From an uncultured Herminiimonas sp. (GTDB lineage: Bacteria; Pseudomonadota; Gammaproteobacteria; Burkholderiales; Burkholderiaceae_D): a DNA stretch of 64,000 bases. The stretch's first letter is position 1, and every line of letters begins with the position of its first letter. Position numbers and translations under genes: made by a program. Of the stretch, positions 2,931 to 63,311 are shown in pieces. Under the pieces are notes generated by a model. That model saw nothing but the letters and a program-made list of their open reading frames with translations. It searched no databases and was not told the DNA's origin. The DNA is taken from assembly GCA_963975775.1 (NCBI GenBank), contig CAXBIF010000001.1:267413-331412 (forward strand). The letters are read 5' to 3'.

Positions 2931-3958
2931 CAGATCACCTTCGCGCGCGTCAAGTCGTGGATATGCACGGCACCGATTAATTTGTTGTCGTCATCAACCA
3001 CAAGCAACTGATTGATGCGATACGTTTCCATCATCTCGACCGCCTCAACTGCCAATTGTTCAGGTTTTAACGCACGTGGATTGGCGTGCATGACGTCAGC
3101 GATCAACAGTGTGGAAAGATCCTGCTTGCGTTCGATCAGTCGGCGCAAATCACCGTCCGTGAAGACGCCAATTGCATGACCGTCGTCATCCACCACGCTC
3201 GTCATGGCCATACCTTTTCTGCTGATCTCAAGCAAGGCCTCAGTAAGCGTGGCGCGTTGGGAGACAGCGGGGAGTGCGGCGCCGGTGCGCATGACATCGC
3301 GTACATGGGTCAACAGGCGTCGACCGAGCGCACCGCCCGGATGTGAGCGGGCAAAATCTTCTGCACCAAAGCCGCGTGCATCAAGTAGCGCCATTGCCAC
3401 CGCATCTCCGAGTGCTAAGGTCGCGGTGGTGCTGGCTGTCGGTGCGAGGTTGAGTGGGCAGGCTTCCTTGTCGACTTTGACATTCAAATGGACGTCGGCC
3501 AGTTGCGCTAAATTGGAGGCGTCATTGCCGGTGATGGCAATCAAGGTTGCACCCATGCGCTTAATGATGGGAACCACCGCGAGTAATTCTCCGGCCTCAC
3601 CCGAATACGAAATCGCAATCAGCACATCATCAGTAGTGATCATGCCCAAATCGCCATGCGAGGCTTCGGCGGCATGGACAAACAAGGCGGGCGTGCCCGT
3701 TGATGCTAGCGTCGAGGCAATCTTGCGCGCGATGTGCCCTGATTTACCTATTCCTGACACCACTACGCGCCCACGGCACGCTAACAACAATGCGACCGCT
3801 TTGCTTAAAAGTCCGGCGCTGTCACCAGCGAGGCGCGCTTTGAGCGCGAGCAAAGCGTCGGCTTCGATCTGGATGGTCTCGCAAGCAAACTGCAATGCAC
3901 GTTCGCTGCTGGCGGCATTAAAATCTGCCGGGAAAGAGGGGGCTTGGGTTACACTCAT
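2930..3958 (-). CDS. kdsD: Arabinose 5-phosphate isomerase (SIS + 2 CBS)
   Basis: GIGKSGHIARK, EASHGDLG, LAPTASTT, HPGGALG; start placed at ATG 3958 (ORF track opens at 3988). Confidence 0.95.
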   Translation of the reverse strand: MSVTQAPSFPADFNAASSERALQFACETIQIEADALLALKARLAGDSAGLLSKAVALLLACRGRVVVSGIGKSGHIARKIASTLASTGTPALFVHAAEASHGDLGMITTDDVLIAISYSGEAGELLAVVPIIKRMGATLIAITGNDASNLAQLADVHLNVKVDKEACPLNLAPTASTTATLALGDAVAMALLDARGFGAEDFARSHPGGALGRRLLTHVRDVMRTGAALPAVSQRATLTEALLEISRKGMAMTSVVDDDGHAIGVFTDGDLRRLIERKQDLSTLLIADVMHANPRALKPEQLAVEAVEMMETYRINQLLVVDDDNKLIGAVHIHDLTRAKVI

Positions 3959-4152
3959 GCGGAAAGTATAAACGAAATTCCAAAGCAAAAAACTTGCCAG
4001 TCAATTTTAAGTTTGTATTTGCGTTATCTTTAGGCGCATCTGGACGCGCCGTGTTAGCACCATTTTTGTAATGCTCATGAAAGGTCATCGCTTCATGGCC
4101 GCATCTTCATATTGACGCAGTTTTGCTGACACCTATTTTCTGACTTCATCCC

Positions 4153-6138
4153 ATGTTTTCGCCTCTCGAACTCACCTTATTATTACTGGTCGCCGCTGTG
4201 CTGGGAGTGGTCGCCTTTCGCATTATGCAATTGCCGCCAATGCTCGGTTATCTGGCTGCTGGCATTCTGATTGGTCCTTACAGTTTGGGATTGGCGGAAG
4301 ATAACGCGACCACGCATACGTTGGCGGAGTTTGGTGTTGTCTTTTTGATGTTCTCGCTTGGCCTGGAGTTTTCACTTGCCAAGCTGATAGCGATGCGACG
4401 CATCGTATTTGGCTTGGGCATTGGACAAGTTGTGTTGAGTCTATTGGCAACCATGGCATTTACCTGGCTGATTGCCTATTACGTCCCACGTTTTACCGCG
4501 ATTAGCTGGCAAGCGGCGTTCGCGCTGGGCGCGGCATTGGCTTTGTCATCGACTGCGATTGTTTCGAAAATGCTGACCGAACGGCTAGAGCTCGAAACCG
4601 AGTATGGGCGTCGGATTATTGGGATTTTATTATTCCAAGATTTAGCCTTGGTGCCGTTGTTGATCATGGTGCCAGCAATCGCCAATCCACAAGACGATTT
4701 GGTTGTTACGCTAGCGTGGGCTAGCTTGAAGGCGGCGATTGTTTTGCTGTTACTGCTTTTCATCGGACAAAAACTGATCCGCGGGTGGTTACGAATTGTG
4801 GTGAGGCGGCATTCGCAAGAACTGTTCATGCTCAATATCCTGTTGATTACTTTAGGTGCAGCGTGGATTACTGAAATGGCAGGCCTGTCGTTGGCACTGG
4901 GGGCGTTTGTCGCTGGCATGGTGATTTCTGAGACCGAGTTTCGTTCACAGGTGGAAGAAGACATCAAGTCATTCCGCGATGTGTTGTTGGGACTATTTTT
5001 TATCACCATCGGCATGCTGTTAAACGTGCGCTTGGTGGTAGAGAACTGGTGGCTAGTTCTGCTGTTGGTCACAATTCCAATGTTGCTCAAATTTGGCGTC
5101 ATCACCGCACTCGCACGTTTCTTTGGCGCCTCTACCGGCGTGTCCTTGCGTACTGGCTTGGCCTTGGCACAAGCGGGTGAATTTAGCTTTGTTTTACTTA
5201 ATCAGGTAAGCGGCATGAACCTGATGGACCCACTGATCGTTCAATTGATACTGGCGTCAATGGTGCTGTCCATGCTGATTGCGCCATTTATTATCGACAA
5301 CGCCGATAAGATTGTGCTCAAGTTTTCTGCCAGCGAATGGATGACGCAATCGCTGGCCTTGACGCAAATTGCAACGCGCACCATGTCGTCGCAAAAGCAT
5401 GTACTGATTGCCGGTTTTGGCCGTAGCGGACAGAATCTCGCCAAACAGTTAGAAGAAGAGGGTATCCCCTATCACGCGTTGGACATGGACCCAGATAGAG
5501 TGCGGGCCGCGCAGGCGGCTGGCGCGCATGTGTCATATGGCGATGCCGGCCGTCGAGAAAGTCTGGTGGCAGCCGGTATTCACCGCGCCGCGACGCTAGT
5601 GATTACTTACGCCAATACACCTTCGGCGTTGCGCGTCTTGCGTCATACGCATGAGTTACGACCGAACTTGCCGGTGATTGTGCGTAGTTATGACGATACC
5701 GATTTTGAAAAACTGCGCGAAGCCGGTGCGGCGGAAGTGGTGCCAGAAGTGATGGAAGGTAGTTTGATGCTGGCTTCACAAGCTTTGCTGACGATGGGCG
5801 TGCCGTTGCGTAAAGTGGTACAGCGCGTGCAAATGACACGTAGCAAACGTTATGCATCGTTGCGTGGTTATTTTCATGGTCTCAGTGACAGCGATGTCGA
5901 TGAGCATTTGCAAGTGCGACTGCAGTCCGTCGCCTTGCATGATGGTGCTGCAGCTATTGGTAAACCTTTGGCAGATATCAAGTTGGGTGATGTGGATGTG
6001 GATGTCACCGCATTAAGACGCGGCATCAAGCGTATAGATTGGAGCATGGACACCGTGTTGGAGCAGGGCGATATTCTGGTTTTACGCGGCGCGATGGAAG
6101 GCTTGGCGCTGGCAGAAAACAAGCTGCTGAAGTCTTGA
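4153..6138 (+). CDS. CPA2-family cation/proton antiporter with TrkA-N and TrkA-C domains (KefB/YbaL-like)
   Basis: About 13 TM segments, GILLFQDL, AQAGEFSF, IAGFGRSGQ KTN motif. Confidence 0.9.
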   Translation: MFSPLELTLLLLVAAVLGVVAFRIMQLPPMLGYLAAGILIGPYSLGLAEDNATTHTLAEFGVVFLMFSLGLEFSLAKLIAMRRIVFGLGIGQVVLSLLATMAFTWLIAYYVPRFTAISWQAAFALGAALALSSTAIVSKMLTERLELETEYGRRIIGILLFQDLALVPLLIMVPAIANPQDDLVVTLAWASLKAAIVLLLLLFIGQKLIRGWLRIVVRRHSQELFMLNILLITLGAAWITEMAGLSLALGAFVAGMVISETEFRSQVEEDIKSFRDVLLGLFFITIGMLLNVRLVVENWWLVLLLVTIPMLLKFGVITALARFFGASTGVSLRTGLALAQAGEFSFVLLNQVSGMNLMDPLIVQLILASMVLSMLIAPFIIDNADKIVLKFSASEWMTQSLALTQIATRTMSSQKHVLIAGFGRSGQNLAKQLEEEGIPYHALDMDPDRVRAAQAAGAHVSYGDAGRRESLVAAGIHRAATLVITYANTPSALRVLRHTHELRPNLPVIVRSYDDTDFEKLREAGAAEVVPEVMEGSLMLASQALLTMGVPLRKVVQRVQMTRSKRYASLRGYFHGLSDSDVDEHLQVRLQSVALHDGAAAIGKPLADIKLGDVDVDVTALRRGIKRIDWSMDTVLEQGDILVLRGAMEGLALAENKLLKS

Positions 6139-6316
6139 GGCGACTATCTACTGTGTGTTTCTTGAACGAATCCTGAGAGCGGTTGCCAAACTAGAGTGAA
6201 CAAATTTGTGGCGACTTTGGCGTCACGGTTTACAGATGATTCACTTTGCATTTGCTTTAATCATATCGGTCATGATTGTCTCCGCATTCTGCTTTACTCT
6301 CTGTTGAAAGTCGTTG

Positions 6317-7207
6317 ATGCCCGTTCTCCTTAAAAGTACTTTTTCAGTTTTAAGTTTATTGATGGTGGTTGGTTTAGTGGGTTGCGCACCACTAGCGACG
6401 ATCAATGCGTTGAGGCCGACTAGTGCGTATGACAAGCATGCAGAGCTTGCTTACGGCAGTGACCCACGTCAAAAATTAGATGTCTACACGCCCCGTGATT
6501 TAAAAGCGTCCGCACCCGTCGTTGTGTTTTTCTATGGCGGCACTTGGAACGCTGGCGCACGCGCTGATTACAAGTTTGTCGGTCAAGCGCTGGCATCACG
6601 CGGCATCGTTGCGGTGGTAGCTGACTATCGCTTATATCCGCAAGTGCGCTACCCCGGCATTTTGCAAGACAGTGCGCACGCAGTCGCCTGGACGCTAAAA
6701 AATATCGGACGTTTTGGCGGCGACCCCGCGCATGTCTTTGTCATGGGACATAGTGCCGGTGCGTATAACGCCGCGATGGTCGCACTTGATGGTCGCTGGT
6801 TAGAGCAAGCTGATACCAAGACTACTGCATTGCGCGGCTGGATAGGCTTGGCCGGTCCGTACGACTTTCTGCCGATAGAAAACCCGGAAGCAAAACCGGT
6901 GTTCTTTTTCCCTAACAGCCCGCCAGAATCGCAGCCTATCAATCATGTCACCGCCGCTGCGCCGCCAGCTTTGCTGATCGCCGCGCTAAATGACAAGCTA
7001 GTTAATCCGCAGCGCAACACGCGTGGTATGACCGACAAGTTACGCGCGGTCGGCGTCAAGGTAGAGACAATTTACTATGACCGTTATCTATCGCATCCGA
7101 CCTTGGTGGCGACACTGGCATGGCCTTTACGTTGGTGGGCACCCGTGTTGGATAATGTCGAACAATTTGTTAAATCGGATGGTGGTCGTAAGTCTAGTGC
7201 GCAATAG
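6317..7207 (+). CDS. Alpha/beta hydrolase lipoprotein (carboxylesterase-like)
   Basis: Lipobox LVGC, FYGGTW oxyanion loop, GHSAG nucleophile elbow. Confidence 0.85.
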   Translation: MPVLLKSTFSVLSLLMVVGLVGCAPLATINALRPTSAYDKHAELAYGSDPRQKLDVYTPRDLKASAPVVVFFYGGTWNAGARADYKFVGQALASRGIVAVVADYRLYPQVRYPGILQDSAHAVAWTLKNIGRFGGDPAHVFVMGHSAGAYNAAMVALDGRWLEQADTKTTALRGWIGLAGPYDFLPIENPEAKPVFFFPNSPPESQPINHVTAAAPPALLIAALNDKLVNPQRNTRGMTDKLRAVGVKVETIYYDRYLSHPTLVATLAWPLRWWAPVLDNVEQFVKSDGGRKSSAQ

Positions 7208-7411: not shown

Positions 7412-8332
7412 ATGGAAATTTTAGAGCGCATACTTGGCATCATTCTGCCAGTCTTTATCATCATTGCCATCGGCTTTGCCTACGCGCGCGCACGTGGCGA
7501 AACGGTGCATGCTGATATGGCCTCGGTCAGTCGCGTCAGTATGAGTGTGCTGTCACCGTTACTGATTTTTACTGCGTTAGCTGGCAAGGATTTTGATCTG
7601 GCGCAAAACGGCATTTTGATCTTGATCGGTGTTGTCATTTCGCTAGGATCAGGCTTGATAGCATGGCCGCTCGCACGTTTGCTCGGGTACGACGTACGGA
7701 CTTTTGTGCCGCCGATGATGTACAACAATTGCGGCAATATGGGTTTGCCTTTGTCGGTATTAGCGTTTGGCGCCTCTAGTCTTGGATCAGCGGTTGCCTT
7801 GTTCATGGCCTGCAACCTGATGTATTTTTCAGTCGGTATAAAAATACTAGAAAGTGGCCGCGTCGGCACCGATCATCCGCGCAAAGCGCACTGGCAGTTC
7901 TTGCGCAACCCGATGATGATCGCGATGCTGCTCGGGATTATTTTTGCAGCGCTCAAGCCAGGCATTCCTGCGCCACTATTTACCGCCATGCAAATGCTGG
8001 GTAGCGCCTGCATCCCGATCATGCTGTTTTCGCTCGGCGTACGCATGCGCGATATTAGCTTTAAAAGTTGGCCCATCGGCATTGTCGGCGCTTGCGTCTG
8101 CCCGCTGGCTGGATTGATAGTGGCTTGGTTGCTTGATCAATCACTCGACCTGACGCAAGCGCAACGCGGCCAGATGTATTTGTTTGCCGCACTACCACCC
8201 GCAATTTTCTGCTTCATGATGGCCGAGCGCTACAAGCAAGAGCCGGACAAGGTGGCGTCCATTGTGCTGCTTGGTACGCTTTCAGCGTTGCTGTTTGTGC
8301 CGCTGGGGTTATGGATGGGTTTGCCTAAGTGA
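7412..8332 (+). CDS. AEC (auxin efflux carrier) family transporter
   Basis: About 10 TM segments, YNNCGNMGLP and ALPPAIF motifs. Confidence 0.88.
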   Translation: MEILERILGIILPVFIIIAIGFAYARARGETVHADMASVSRVSMSVLSPLLIFTALAGKDFDLAQNGILILIGVVISLGSGLIAWPLARLLGYDVRTFVPPMMYNNCGNMGLPLSVLAFGASSLGSAVALFMACNLMYFSVGIKILESGRVGTDHPRKAHWQFLRNPMMIAMLLGIIFAALKPGIPAPLFTAMQMLGSACIPIMLFSLGVRMRDISFKSWPIGIVGACVCPLAGLIVAWLLDQSLDLTQAQRGQMYLFAALPPAIFCFMMAERYKQEPDKVASIVLLGTLSALLFVPLGLWMGLPK

Positions 8333-8612
8333 GGTAGCGGTGAAGTGGCGAACCTGGCGCTAAAAGAGACGAGCTTCGATACTGGTTAAACGCGGGCAGT
8401 CTAGCCTTCTCGTTGACTAGTAATTCTGAGCCTGCTTCTTGAATGGTTAAGTAAGGGATGAATATGGCAGAAATTCCATATCCACGGGATGCCCGAATAG
8501 CCAGCAGTCTTCTATGCTGTTGAAGCATTAATCAATACACGGGATATTCATAGTTTTGCTTGATCAGTTTCAGGCATTTGTCACCGTAAAAAGCCTGCCG
8601 CTTTTTCGGATT

Positions 8613-8743
8613 TGTTTACAGCTGATGATTTGCACAGTACATTCTGTTTCAGCCAATCTCCACGGGGGCATGGAAGTAGCTTGCCGAGTTAGACAGCACG
8701 CTCTAGGTTATCCATCACTTTTTCTGTATAAAATAAGTTAGGC
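8613..8743 (+). other. Putative integron-type recombination site (attI-like or atypical long attC), copy 1
   Basis: Ends in GTTAGGC (8737-8743); internal GTTA at 8688 and 8707; homologous to 63177-63311 on the minus strand (47/61 ungapped over 8683-8743). Confidence 0.6.
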
Positions 8744-8749
8744 GTTGCA

Positions 8750-9421
8750 ATGAGCACACCCTGGAATCTCGGCGAACTGCGGACGCATGCCAAGAAAAAC
8801 TCTGACAGAACTACGCTCGAGCTTGTTGATTCAGTGAGTCGAAGCGACTCAATTTTTCAGTACCACGTATTCACTGCACGCGACGCGCTGAAAGGAATCC
8901 TCAACTACGAGGAGCCGCAGGGGGTAGAGAACTGGATGTTCATCCTCGGCGGCTCGGATCGTCAAGAAGAATTCTTCTATGCCAAGGTTGTCAGCGAAGC
9001 CAACCTGATTTCGTGCATACACACCGCTCGTAGCTTGCTTGAAACGTTCGCACAGCTAGTCAATCGCATCGTCCTTGAGAGCGCCATCGAAGTATCGAAA
9101 TGCACTCCAAAGGCAGTCGTTGCCAAGCTACCAAATGGTGAAATCAAGACCAAGCTCCAGGAGTTGCTTGCCTCACATTGGTTTTCATACACATCTGCAT
9201 TCACCAACACCGTCAAACACAGGCAACTCATTCAGCATCATGTCTCCATCTCGTTTGTAGACAACATCGTCGGCATCAAGGTTGGCGCATTCGAGTACGA
9301 AGGCGTGTCATATCCAGCCTACTGGGCCAATGAGTTTCTGCAGGGTGTTATCGATGTCAAGAATGAAATTATTGATCTTGGGCGAGCCCTCAATTGCACC
9401 CTGGCGCACGGCAACGCCTAA
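8750..9421 (+). CDS. Gene-cassette ORF, hypothetical HEPN-like protein (Cthe_2314-like)
   Basis: Helical 223-aa protein with FTNTVKHR motif; ATG 6 nt after GTTAGGC; stop codon lies inside GCCTAAC. Confidence 0.6.
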   Translation: MSTPWNLGELRTHAKKNSDRTTLELVDSVSRSDSIFQYHVFTARDALKGILNYEEPQGVENWMFILGGSDRQEEFFYAKVVSEANLISCIHTARSLLETFAQLVNRIVLESAIEVSKCTPKAVVAKLPNGEIKTKLQELLASHWFSYTSAFTNTVKHRQLIQHHVSISFVDNIVGIKVGAFEYEGVSYPAYWANEFLQGVIDVKNEIIDLGRALNCTLAHGNA

Positions 9422-9472
9422 CCCTTCAATCAAGAGCAAGCCGGGTTATGCCTCTCATCTCAAACGTTAGCG
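9416..9472 (+). mobile_element. attC site (59-base element)
   Basis: GCCTAAC CCTTC AATCAAGAG ... CCTCTCATCT CAAAC GTTAGCG, 57 bp; inverse core GCCTAAC is the exact complement of the cassette 5' core GTTAGGC. Confidence 0.8.
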
Positions 9473-9493
9473 GGCTTGTAAGTAGAAGGAGAA

Positions 9494-9527
9494 AATAAAA
9501 AAGCGAACGGAAGTTCGCTTTTTTATT
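9494..9527. terminator. Bidirectional intrinsic terminator (uvrA / cassette)
   Basis: AATAAAAAAGCGAAC-GGAA-GTTCGCTTTTTTATT. Confidence 0.85.
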
Positions 9528-9553
9528 GGCCAGTCGTTAAGAGTATCAATAAT

Positions 9554-12418
9554 TTATGCAGCCGCTTTTTTCTGCTTCAGCAAAGGCCCCAAATATTTTC
9601 CAGTAAAGCTGGCAGGATTTTTTGCCAAATCTTCCGGCGTACCGCTACCTATAATTTGTCCGCCGCCCGCGCCACCTTCTGGGCCCATATCAATCAGCCA
9701 GTCAGCGGTTTTGATGACGTCCAAATTGTGCTCGATGATGACGACGGTGTTGCCTTGATCGCGCAGACGATGAATTACTTTTAGCAATAAATCGATATCG
9801 TGGAAGTGCAAGCCGGTGGTTGGCTCATCCAGGATATACAAGGTGCGGCCGGTGTCGCGCTTCGACAATTCCAGCGACAGTTTGACGCGCTGCGCTTCGC
9901 CACCTGACAGTGTGGTGGCGCTTTGGCCGAGGCGGATGTAGCCGAGTCCAACGTCGAGTAGCGTTTGCAGTTTGCGCGCAATTACTGGTACCGGTTTAAA
10001 GAAAACGTGCGCTTCTTCTACCGTCATCTGCAGCACTTCGGTGATGTTTTTTCCCTTGTACTGGATCTCCATGGTTTCGCGGTTGTAGCGATTGCCGTGG
10101 CAGACGTCGCACGGTACATAGACGTCCGGCAAAAAGTGCATCTCAACCTTGATCACGCCATCGCCCTGACAAGCTTCGCAACGACCGCCTTTGACGTTGA
10201 ACGAGAAACGTCCTGCGGAATAGCCGCGTTCTTTGGATGCGGGTACGGTGGCAAACAGATCGCGTATCGGTGTGAATAAGCCGGTGTAGGTTGCAGGATT
10301 GGAGCGTGGGGTACGACCGATTGGTGCTTGATCGACCGAGATCACTTTGTCGAAATGTTCGAAGCCGCTGATCGTGTCATGCGCCGCCGGTTCTGCTTGC
10401 GAGCCGTAAAGATGGCGCGCTGCTGCGTGATACAAAGTGTCGTTAACCAAGGTTGATTTGCCGGAGCCTGAGACGCCAGTGACGCAGGTCAGCAAGCCGA
10501 CTGGTAGTTCCAAGGTAACGTTCTTTAAATTGTTGCCGCTCGCGCCCGTAATGACGAATTGTTTTTTCGGGTTTGGTGGCGTGCGTTTTGGCGGTACTGC
10601 GATGCCGAGCGTACCGTTTAGATATTTTGCCGTCAGCGATTTTTTGCTTTTTAAAATATCGGCCAGCGTACCTTCTGCGATTACTTCGCCACCATGCACG
10701 CCCGCACCGATACCCATGTCGACCACGTAATCAGCGCAACGGATCGCGTCTTCATCATGCTCAACCACTAGCACGCTGTTGCCGATGTCGCGCAGATGTT
10801 TGAGCGTCTCGATCAATCTGTCGTTATCGCGCTGATGCAAGCCGATTGATGGTTCGTCGAGTACGTACATGACGCCAGTTAAGCCCGAGCCGATTTGCGA
10901 GGCTAGGCGTATGCGTTGCGACTCGCCGCCGGATAAACTATCGGCGCTGCGATCCAGCGACAGATAATCAAGCCCAACGTTATTGAGGAAGGTCAGGCGC
11001 GAAATAATTTCTTTGACGATGCGATCGGCGATTTCTTTTTTTGCGCCGGTCAATTTCAAGGTCTCAAAAAACTCTAATGTCTGACGTAATGGTGTGGCCG
11101 CGACTTCATAAATTGCACGTTGCTGTTTACCGCTACCGACTTTGACGTAACGCGCTTCGACGCGTAGACGCGCACCATCGCAGCTAGGGCACCCTTTTTC
11201 ATTGATGAACTTGGCGAGTTCTTCGCGCACTGCCGTCGAGTCGGTTTCGCGATAGCGACGTTGCAGATTGTTGACCACGCCTTCAAACTCGTGCTCGCGA
11301 ATCACGGTACGGCCTTTTTCATTCACATACTGGAATGGAATCTTTTGTTTGCCTGAGCCAAAAAGCACGGCTTGTTGCGCATTCTCTGGCAGTTTTTCAA
11401 ATGGCGTGTCGATGTCGAACGCATAAAATTCAGCAAGACTGGTCAGCATCTGAAAATAAAACTGGTTGCGTCTATCCCAGCCTTTGACCGCGCCGCTGGC
11501 GAGCGATAGATTTGGGAAGGCGACGATACGCTTGGGGTCAAAAAACTCGATATGACCAAGACCGTCGCACTCCGGACACGCGCCCATCGGATTGTTGAAT
11601 GAGAACAAGCGCGGCTCTAATTCTTGCAATGAATAGCCGCACACTGGGCAAGCAAATTTGTTGGAGAACAGATGCGTCACTTCGCTATCCATTTCTACTG
11701 CGAGCGCACGTCCGTCGGCGAGTCTTAATGCCGTTTCAAAACTTTCAGCTAATCGTTGCTTGATGTCGGCCTTGACCTTGATGCGGTCGACCACGACATC
11801 GATCGTGTGTTTTTCAGTTTTCTTTAATTTTGGCAGCGCGTCGACATCATAGATGTGCGCATTGCCGGTACCGCTCTGCACGCGAAAGCGCACAAAACCT
11901 TGTGCCTGCATTTGTTCAAACAAATCCAGATGCTCGCCTTTGCGATTGGCAACCACCGGCGCCAAGATCATTAACTTGGTATCTTCTGGCATCGCTAATA
12001 CGGTATCGACCATTTGCGATACCGATTGCGCAGCCAGCGGCTTCTCTGGATGATCGGGACAATACGGTGTACCAACGCGCGCATACAGCAGACGTAGATA
12101 ATCGTGAATCTCGGTGACGGTACCGACGGTGGAGCGTGGATTGTGTGAGGTTGCCTTTTGCTCAATCGAGATCGCTGGCGACAAGCCTTCAATCAAATCG
12201 ACGTCCGGTTTTTCCATCAGCTGCAAAAACTGTCGCGCATAGGCGGACAAGGATTCGACGTAGCGACGCTGGCCTTCCGCATACAGCGTGTCGAAGGCGA
12301 GCGAGGATTTGCCAGAGCCGGATAAGCCGGTTATCACAATCAATTGATTGCGCGGTAAATCGAGATTGATATTTTTGAGGTTGTGCGTACGCGCACCTCG
12401 AATGCGAATTTGTTCCAT
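9554..12418 (-). CDS. uvrA: Excinuclease ABC subunit A
   Basis: [14 protein letters not shown], two ABC modules, zinc fingers CPVC/CPEC and CEAC/CDVC. Confidence 0.99.
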
Positions 12419-62650: not shown

Positions 62651-63160
62651 TTAAGAGTTAACTCTTGCATGTGCCTGTTGACGAATGGACTCCCTATTTC
62701 GATCATCTTCAACGATGGAGCCCAAGTATCTCTCCATTATGCAATTTACAATCGTTTTCAGGCTCTGTATTTCTCCGATTGCCTGTTCAAGCTCGCGTAG
62801 CGGTGCCTTGGAGTAGTCGACGTTAAGTTGATCTACCGATTCATTGATAGCGCTAAGGGATTCTTCATCTACCGTGTGTTGACGCACCCATCTCTCATAT
62901 GCGCCGGACTGGCGCATTCCCATAGCTGCTGCGACCGCATTTCGGGATCGTTTGGCACGAGCGAGTAGGTCAACCAAGTCTTCGGCTTTTTGAAACGCAT
63001 CTACTCCGGTCTTCATGATTTCAAGGCGCAACTCGAGCGCTTTGATTTCGTTCGTTTTGCGATAGCTTAAGTAACCCATGACGGCGCCAGCGATACCCGT
63101 TATGGTCCCTATCAAACCTGTGATTGCGCCGATATACGACAACAAATCAGTATTTTTCAT
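62651..63160 (-). CDS. Cassette-like ORF, hypothetical protein with N-terminal TM helix and helical/coiled-coil body
   Basis: ATG 16 nt after GTTAGGC with a GGAG RBS; IGAITGLIGTITGIAGAVMGYL TM segment. Confidence 0.7.
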   Translation of the reverse strand: MKNTDLLSYIGAITGLIGTITGIAGAVMGYLSYRKTNEIKALELRLEIMKTGVDAFQKAEDLVDLLARAKRSRNAVAAAMGMRQSGAYERWVRQHTVDEESLSAINESVDQLNVDYSKAPLRELEQAIGEIQSLKTIVNCIMERYLGSIVEDDRNRESIRQQAHARVNS

Positions 63161-63176
63161 ATGACTCCGATGGATG

Positions 63177-63311
63177 GCCTAACGTGTTTTATATAGCAAA
63201 AGTTATGGTTAACCTGGAAGGCGTTATATAACTCCGCCTACCTTTTCCATGGAAACCAGCATGGTTACTGCCTCAAACAAAGCGTTCTGTTCAAACGAGC
63301 AATAGTGAACA
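63177..63311 (-). other. Putative integron-type recombination site, copy 2
   Basis: Minus strand ends ...GCTATATAAAACACGTTAGGC; homologous to 8613-8743. Confidence 0.6.

Follow-up and report, generated by a model that had tools for sequence, protein, structure and literature searches.

How does a lone integron gene cassette come to stand between housekeeping genes, and what does the gene that it carries encode? In the window (the whole stretch of DNA analysed here, 64,000 nucleotides from an uncultured Herminiimonas sp.), the initial annotation had described a complete, solitary cassette between an AEC-transporter gene and the terminator of uvrA, with a single gene encoding a HEPN-like protein that was proposed to act in defence or as a toxin. 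Reading the window directly, we found every sequence element of that description in place, namely GTTAGGC, a 6-nt gap, an open reading frame (ORF) of 223 aa, a TAA inside GCCTAAC and a 57-bp attC.

A true integron gene cassette

The features of the region, in window coordinates, are as follows.

8336..8514, no strand assigned: DNA specific to the insertion, filling the interval from the AEC-transporter stop codon to the attI-like element
8515..8743, plus strand: attI-like platform of ~225 bp, similar to paralogous copies and ending at the core GTTAGGC (8737-8743)
8738..9466, plus strand: gene cassette of 729 bp; its first base is the T that follows the crossover G8737, and its last is G9466 of R'
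8750..9421, plus strand: ORF of 223 aa, with its ATG at 8750 and its TAA at 9419-9421
9416..9472, plus strand: attC of 57 bp, with R'' GCCTAAC, L'' ATCAAGAG, L' CTCTCAT and R' GTTAGCG; a 12-nt deletion has removed one arm of the central stem
9494..9527, minus strand: uvrA terminator hairpin, host DNA, located by a terminator scan and forming the right edge of the insertion

The core GTTAGGC is followed by the six nucleotides GTTGCA (8744-8749) and then by the ATG, the TAA of the ORF lies within R'' (9416-9422), and R' (9466-9472) closes the site. The 5' TTAGGC of the cassette is the complement of GCCTAA in its own R''. The gene had been described as having no ribosome-binding site, which is nearly right, but the AGG of the 5' core stands 7 nt before the ATG and may allow weak initiation of translation.

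For comparison, we assembled 76 close homologues of the encoded protein and recovered the surrounding DNA for eleven distinct ones. The 5' junction, G|TTAGGC, is the same at loci L006, L007, L010, L048 and L054 and is degenerate at L052 and L049. In an alignment of eight upstream regions, similarity starts at (G)TTAGGC, and the DNA to the left is unrelated among the contexts. At L006, which encodes a protein 88% identical to that of the window, the gene starts as GTTAGGCGTCGCA-ATG directly after another attC and ends in a 72-bp canonical attC whose R''-L'' and L'-R' sequences are common to the window site. The L048 gene has a canonical attC upstream and the L054/L055 gene has canonical attC sites on both sides, each inside an array of small ORFs; an attC lies immediately upstream of the homologue at L010, and the homologue at L012 is within an array in which three attC sites were found by covariance model. 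Homologues therefore occur in attC arrays at L006, L010/L013, L048, L054/L055 and L012, as expected of a mobile gene. At L007 (Uliginosibacterium flavum), the homologue is solitary: only the GTTAGGCGTTGCA leader is kept, and housekeeping genes lie on either side.

The attC covariance model was built from eight attC sites of other loci, with the window site excluded and only the R and L box pairs specified. Applied to the 64-kb window, it gave a single significant match, at 9416-9471, with a score of 30.5 bits (rough E value 7.5e-6), part of which reflects sequence homology and not structure alone, since the seeds include homologues of the window site; the next-best match in the window scored 12.9 bits. 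As a positive control, the model found five attC sites (35-50 bits), all absent from its training set, beside the only genuine intI in the genus. The window site thus passed the covariance-model scoring that had been set as a check on the attC. (A regex-plus-folding attC scanner of our own was too crude and was replaced by the covariance model.)

That an ORF and inverted 7-mers merely fell into this arrangement by chance, with no mobile cassette involved, is an extremely improbable reading that is already refuted, for although the site folds no better than shuffled sequence and 7-nt inverted repeats are frequent by chance within 1 kb, the covariance-model match is unique in 64 kb, the window attC is homologous to the attC sites of L048, L006 and L013, and the junction is kept across eight contexts. 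We conclude that the segment from 8738 to 9466 is a true integron gene cassette, as had been claimed: its boundaries, the family to which its attC belongs and the presence of the same ORF in several attC arrays are in accord.

The insertion and its attI-like platform

Congeners have an empty site at this position, in which ~10 bp separate the stop codon of the AEC transporter from the terminator of uvrA; the terminator thus adjoins the transporter gene in these relatives, and it is retained in the window. Relative to the empty site, the window carries ~1.15 kb of extra DNA, roughly 8336-9490. The gene was sought in 24 other genomes of the genus and was absent from all of them, and hence is not fixed and syntenic across relatives, the outcome that the initial annotation had named as counting against a cassette. 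The cassette was recently acquired. The ~400 bp to its left are part of the insertion and separate it from the AEC-transporter gene; the cassette is solitary between housekeeping genes, as first described, in the sense that there is one attC in the region, but its left neighbour is an attI-like element and not the AEC-transporter gene.

The outermost part of the insertion, 8336..8514, has no IntI similarity by tblastn and no other copy in the genome except for its last ~50 bp. A possible target-site duplication (GGTAGCGG at 8336 versus GTTAGCGG at 9466) was discarded because the likeness was too weak. An Rfam scan of 8000-10000 returned sub-threshold matches only, mostly on or beside the uvrA terminator.

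The platform is laid out as GTTAGAC (8688-8694), 19 bp, GTTATCC (8707-8713) and, 30 bp on, the core GTTAGGC. Within it are a promoter-like sequence, TTTACA-17-TACATT (8615-8643), a TG-extended -10-like sequence, TGTATAAAAT (8725-8734), and a LexA-box-like sequence, CTGATGATTTGCACAG (8622-8637), whose palindrome CTGA-N8-ACAG is kept in three platform copies; CTGW-N8-ACAG sites number only 49 in the whole source genome. Transcription of the cassette gene probably starts from these promoter-like sequences.

The source genome contains four copies of the element. Positions 8560-8744 of the window are 82% identical to G000:C2:143069-143257, with similarity ending at GTTA(G/T)GCG. The latter copy stands after the terminator of a large ORF and heads an array of at least four cassettes, with cargo that includes SUKH-4, DUF1330 and a membrane protein; two attC sites of this array score 59-62 bits, although both are training seeds of the model and these scores are not independent. 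The third copy (C1:160150-160315, 78% identical) is associated with one ABM-monooxygenase cassette with a long attC, and the R'' of this cassette, GCCTAAC, complements its own 5' TTAGGC. The fourth copy is in the window itself (63295-63177, minus strand) and precedes a 169-aa ORF. Among eight platform copies from 6 genomes, similarity stops at GTTAGG, and the downstream cassettes differ and carry attC sites, such that a conserved platform and variable cassettes meet at GTT, the arrangement expected of an attI. Five further congeneric genomes have shorter copies. Across 300 genomes of the order, the element was found in none outside the genus, and a comparison with the attI region of the genus's only true integron revealed no homology.

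We read this ~225-bp element as attI-like, though it is not adjacent to an intI. In attI1 of class 1 integrons, two direct-repeat integrase-binding sites are spaced 19 bp apart, with ~32 bp to the GTTRRRY core. The platform resembles attI1 in the order and spacing of its elements (GTTAGAC-19 bp-GTTATCC-30 bp-GTTAGGC), in that cassettes join it at G|TT, and in that a promoter-like sequence reads from it into the cassette. It differs from attI1 in being without an adjacent or genomic intI and in occurring as four dispersed copies. An attI-like platform at four loci in an integrase-free genome bears on the origin of attI sites and of CALIN and SALIN.

The attC defect and the missing integrase

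The attC of the window, when folded, is no more stable than shuffled sequences (z scores of -0.12 and +0.48). It is nearly identical to the attC upstream of the L048 gene except that it is without 12 nt (GACGTGCCCCGG in L048), and these deleted nucleotides constitute one arm of the central stem. The bottom-strand MFE of the window attC is -5.3 kcal/mol (z -0.3), versus -21.2 (z -5.9) for the intact L048 homologue; the window site thus does not form the stable bottom-strand hairpin that characterizes attC sites, owing to the loss of 12 nt from one stem arm. Because recognition of an attC by integron integrases depends on its folded bottom strand, the window attC is very probably inactive and would be a degenerate pseudo-attC.

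The source genome, which was scored 100% complete, was also searched for an integrase. With the TIGR02249 (IntI) model, the best score in this genome was 81.9 bits against a cut-off of 265, and nothing exceeded the cut-off; tblastn with a congeneric IntI detected Xer-type recombinases only, none of them near the locus; and no intI remnant was found by tblastn in 8200-8800 or genome-wide. IntI is present in only one of 26 genomes of the genus. The locus is thus not a complete integron, in which an intI scoring above the TIGR02249 cut-off lies next to attI. Since the attC is internally deleted and the genome lacks IntI, an excised circle is not expected, and the cassette, judged from these features, appears to be a fossil that is now immobile.

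Alternatively, an integrase could have put a lone cassette directly into a secondary genomic site (attG) between housekeeping genes, and its excision as a circle would still be possible. Cassettes of the SALIN type, single and without an integrase, are common, with 3,400 counted in RefSeq (bioRxiv 10.1101/2022.09.11.507474; PMC9024848), IntI can insert cassettes outside att sites, at GWT genomic sites (Loot et al., bioRxiv 10.1101/2022.09.11.507474), and just one attC was found in the region. What lies to the left of the junction, however, is not host intergenic DNA but an attI-like element, present in several copies, that precedes other cassettes in this genome and elsewhere in the genus; relatives lack the entire ~1.15 kb, the attC is damaged, and IntI is absent from the genome. 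This alternative is already contradicted on the point of insertion directly between housekeeping genes, and we consider it very unlikely as a whole.

The immobilised cassette at an attI-like site that we favour instead is similar to the SALIN (one attC) and CALIN (a cluster of attC sites) defined with IntegronFinder 2.0 (PMC9024848), both of which lack an integron integrase, in that it consists of one ORF and one attC, with no intI nearby or in the genome, and in that its gene family also occurs in attC arrays elsewhere. It differs from them in two respects: it is located at a conserved, repeated attI-like element with GTTA direct repeats and a promoter-like region, and not at a random GWT attG, and its attC has an internal 12-nt deletion. 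Isolated cassettes without an integrase are now recognised as one route for the spread of integron cargo and its fixation in chromosomes, and the locus presents the fixing stage of this route, with an intact gene under selection, an attC broken by a defined 12-nt deletion, and no integrase.

The encoded protein and its family

Compared with other members of its family, the ORF is not truncated, and all family-invariant residues are retained. Its dN/dS ratio against five homologues is 0.06-0.12, which indicates that the gene is under purifying selection and that the ORF therefore encodes a functional protein. A profile search yielded 915 representative clusters (at 50% identity), almost all of them single-domain proteins of 220-235 aa. 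Searches of Pfam, PADLOC and NCBIfam with the window protein gave no match (in Pfam, none at E<=10), and no defence-protein model of PADLOC-DB 2.0 matched the window protein, the family consensus or the family member P0170; the PADLOC check that had been suggested for the defence assignment was thus negative. PHROG 37823, a family of unknown function, matches the window protein with E=1.6e-17 over essentially its full length (residues 5-219 versus 8-239 of the 247 profile positions).

Members of the family occur in several kinds of mobile DNA. In Pseudomonas phage vB_PstS-pAN, tblastn located a homologue directly after the integrase gene, overlapping its end by 4 nt. A position after the integrase gene is common for accessory genes of prophages. 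Homologues were also found by tblastn on 33 Xanthomonas plasmids, most of them conjugative, and in the one plasmid examined the homologue follows an upstream ORF with a 4-nt overlap and adjoins an AbiEii/AbiGii toxin gene. The L054 array adjoins an MmeI-type restriction-modification system. In one congener (G017), two genes follow a copy of the attI-like element: first a HepT/DUF4145-like gene, which has an RNLVAH motif and matches HepT and DUF4145 weakly, and then a distant member of the family (23% identity). The window cassette itself consists of a single ORF, with no antitoxin-like partner. From this context, a defence or toxin role for the protein is plausible.

Phage-defence genes have been documented as cargo of integron cassettes (bioRxiv 10.1101/2024.07.02.601719; for sedentary chromosomal integrons, 10.1101/2024.07.02.601686). 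One such cassette (BRiC) encodes an AbiV-family protein (bioRxiv 10.1101/2024.07.02.601719), and AbiV is classed as HEPN (PMC3710099); a homologue of a defence cassette with a pseudo-attC outside integrons has been documented as well (bioRxiv 10.1101/2024.07.02.601719; 10.1101/2024.07.02.601686). Like the BRiCs, the window cassette is compact and has a single gene, and relatives of this gene are found in phages, on plasmids where Abi or toxin genes adjoin them, and alongside restriction-modification genes; unlike them, its role in defence is putative, and its protein is without a PADLOC match. Lone cassettes and cassettes with defence genes both being already known, the less ordinary aspects of the locus are its uncharacterised family and its orphan attI-like platform.

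The AF2 model of the window protein has a pLDDT of 94.6 and a pTM of 0.89. It contains helices at 20-45 and 72-107, short helices at 120-141, further helices at 143-156 and 193-221, and a four-stranded beta module at 163-188. Helix 143-156 ends in the motif N153-T-V-K156-H157-R158, the full form of which is N153-x-x-K156-H157-R158-x4-H163; the R158-QLIQ-H163 segment is present and is conserved among close homologues. HEPN domains are built of four core helices, often with extra sequence inserted between the second and third, and their Rx4-6H motif is at the end of helix 3 (Anantharaman et al. 2013, PMC3710099); the topology of the model (H1, H2, a helical insert, H3 with the motif at its end, and H4) is compatible with this description. 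In the wider family, invariance is confined to W5, K156, H157 and F181: position 158 often has V, I, T, K or another residue in place of R, frequently a hydrophobic one, and H163 lacks conservation. The family is therefore not characterised by the canonical Rx4-6H site.

Similarity to known HEPN proteins was weak. Foldseek searches of PDB and BFVD gave no match with E<1e-3. Among the 50 weak matches listed, the HEPN chain 4nqf_A had the highest probability (0.69, with a target-normalised TM-score of 0.52), which is not significant, and the HepT chains 7bxo and 6m6w were also among the insignificant matches; the structural check called for in the initial annotation therefore placed a HEPN chain first by probability but returned no significant match. 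P0170 matches PF18730 (HEPN_Cthe2314) over 105 collinear residues with E=0.016 and 15.7 bits, below the cut-off. PF18730 is likewise the top Pfam match of the consensus of a diverse alignment (A6), an artificial sequence, with E=9e-5 and 23.0 bits; neither this consensus nor P0170 nor the window protein reaches the gathering cut-off of 27.1 bits. Hence the assignment to HEPN proteins of Cthe_2314 type that had been suggested for the gene finds weak support, in that the consensus and P0170 match PF18730 below the cut-off, but the window protein itself has no match. Members of PF18730 were sought in 400 genomes of the phylum and none was found, and sequence-profile searches of PDB with alignments A1 and A6 gave no match of use.

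What PF18730 and the family have in common is a collinear match over ~85-105 residues that includes the region of the N-x-x-K-H motif, and the window subfamily has R-x4-H; what separates them is that the family scores under the gathering cut-off and varies at the R and H of the motif. A HEPN protein from an integron cassette has a solved structure, PDB 3jrt (Table 1, PMC3710099), and HEPN proteins are thus already known as integron-cassette cargo. The family studied here differs from it in being without a sequence match to any PDB chain, and 3jrt is not among the top 50 Foldseek matches. The family accordingly combines a confident predicted structure with no significant solved neighbour.

These comparisons leave a very divergent HEPN relative as the single best hypothesis for the protein, at a probability that we put close to, and if anything just short of, even. 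The cassette could also be real and its product not a HEPN RNase: the protein may have some other helical-plus-beta fold with a K-H dyad and act as a sensor or regulator, as an immunity or anti-defence protein, or as another enzyme of mobile elements. Several observations point this way, among them the lack of a significant structural neighbour, the variation of the canonical R and H across the family, the insertion of a beta-hairpin module (163-188) where HEPN has a loop, and the lack of a matching PADLOC model; in addition, hhalign of the family against the other HEPN-like family, the DUF4145/HepT-like one from G017, was negative (probability 0.1%), and the gene occurs in a phage genome and so could serve the phage. 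Against it, the consensus match to PF18730 is collinear with the match of an independent member. We regard this reading as doubtful, though it carries appreciable weight. If the link to Cthe_2314-type proteins is true, it would extend HEPN to a variant in which only the K-H pair is invariant.

The explanation of the locus that we favour as a whole, and consider somewhat probable, is an immobilised cassette at an attI-like site with a gene for a stand-alone conflict effector that has a divergent HEPN core. An integron integrase once inserted the cassette at the G|TT crossover of the attI-like site at 8515-8743, which itself belongs to the ~1.15 kb of DNA inserted between the AEC-transporter gene and the terminator of uvrA. 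Decay of the attC in an integrase-free genome then fixed the cassette, and the gene has been maintained by selection. The protein would most likely act on its own, as an abortive-infection or toxin-type effector, in conflict between phage and host or involving plasmids. In its core, the helices would make up a HEPN domain that is very divergent but related to the Cthe_2314 family, and the invariant K156-H157, together with R158 and H163 in the window subfamily, may form a metal-independent RNase site where core helix 3 ends.

A more far-reaching version of this explanation would have the element be a genus-specific 'orphan attI' landing pad, served by an integrase in trans and capturing cassettes repeatedly at several loci, with its own promoter perhaps under SOS (LexA) control, and with a cargo that includes the 223-aa gene as founder of a new single-gene abortive-infection family with a K-H dyad on a divergent HEPN-like scaffold. 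We think it unlikely that all of these parts hold together.

As a large, unannotated family that moves among integron arrays, a temperate phage and conjugative plasmids, the family is a reasonable candidate for phage-defence screens. In a Vibrio record, a homologue is seemingly split into two ORFs and lies in an array of small ORFs on the same strand.

Copies of the attI-like element in the Herminiimonas genome

The ~225-bp attI-like platform that precedes the window's 223-aa cassette ORF has three further copies in the same genome (G000), with the following associated features:

G000:C2:143069-146100 (L027/L047), integrase-less array of at least four cassettes behind a paralogous attI-like element
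G000:C1:160101-160800 (L056), third attI-like copy, core mutated to ATTAGGC
Window 63177-63295, minus strand, fourth attI-like copy, about 70% identical, core GTTAGGC
Window 62651-63160, minus strand, 169-aa ORF after the fourth copy, with an N-terminal hydrophobic segment

The C2 array lies directly downstream of the terminator of a large ORF, and its cargo includes a SUKH-4 immunity-like protein, a DUF1330 protein, a 344-aa membrane protein and a 205-aa lipoprotein-like ORF. The C1 copy bears one cassette, encoding an ABM-monooxygenase, that terminates in a ~100-bp attC (GCCTAAC...GTTATCT), a site that the covariance model, built from eight attC sites of other loci, overlooked. The fourth copy comes after a conserved gene that ends upstream of it, and no attC was detected downstream; the element is also present at the same locus in two congeners (G041 and G011).

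The element beside the window cassette also contains a LexA-box-like palindrome, CTGA-N8-ACAG (8622-8637), which differs from CTGT-N8-ACAG by one base and falls in the spacer of a promoter-like TTTACA-17-TACATT. It is kept at the same position in three of the copies (this one, C2 and C1), and the whole genome contains only 49 CTGW-N8-ACAG sites. The palindrome may be left over from SOS regulation of the kind seen at integron intI promoters.

Genes in congeners, a metagenomic array and a plasmid

Two congeners (G017 and G014) have genes with an R-N-x-x-A-H motif downstream of their attI-like element; relatives of the window protein were also found in two other settings:

L043 (G017:C3), 1027-2486, R-N-x-x-A-H gene region, motif TRNLVAH
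L030 (G014), 2178-2751, R-N-x-x-A-H gene, motif YRNYLAH
L054 (JGI 3300048836 contig), 3300-6500, metagenomic array of four cassettes including one family member
L058 (Xanthomonas campestris plasmid NZ_CP101175.1), 3516-4702, family member and preceding ORF

The G017 gene gave weak Pfam matches to HepT-like and DUF4145, and a distant member of the window protein's family (23% identity) comes after it. The metagenomic array begins downstream of a pyruvate-ferredoxin-oxidoreductase-like gene, where no intI was seen, and restriction-modification genes of MmeI/Eco57I type lie beyond its other end. The single conjugative plasmid of Xanthomonas that was inspected carries the family member beside an AbiEii/AbiGii toxin gene. 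A 154-aa ORF precedes the family member with a 4-nt overlap, and the pair may represent a two-gene version with a partner or antitoxin.

A repeated terminator-like sequence

The uvrA terminator hairpin (window 9494-9527; AAAATAAAAAAGCGAAC...GTTCGCTTTTTTATT) is one instance of a terminator-like sequence that is repeated in this genome and in congeners, with many ~34-bp matches at 85-96%.
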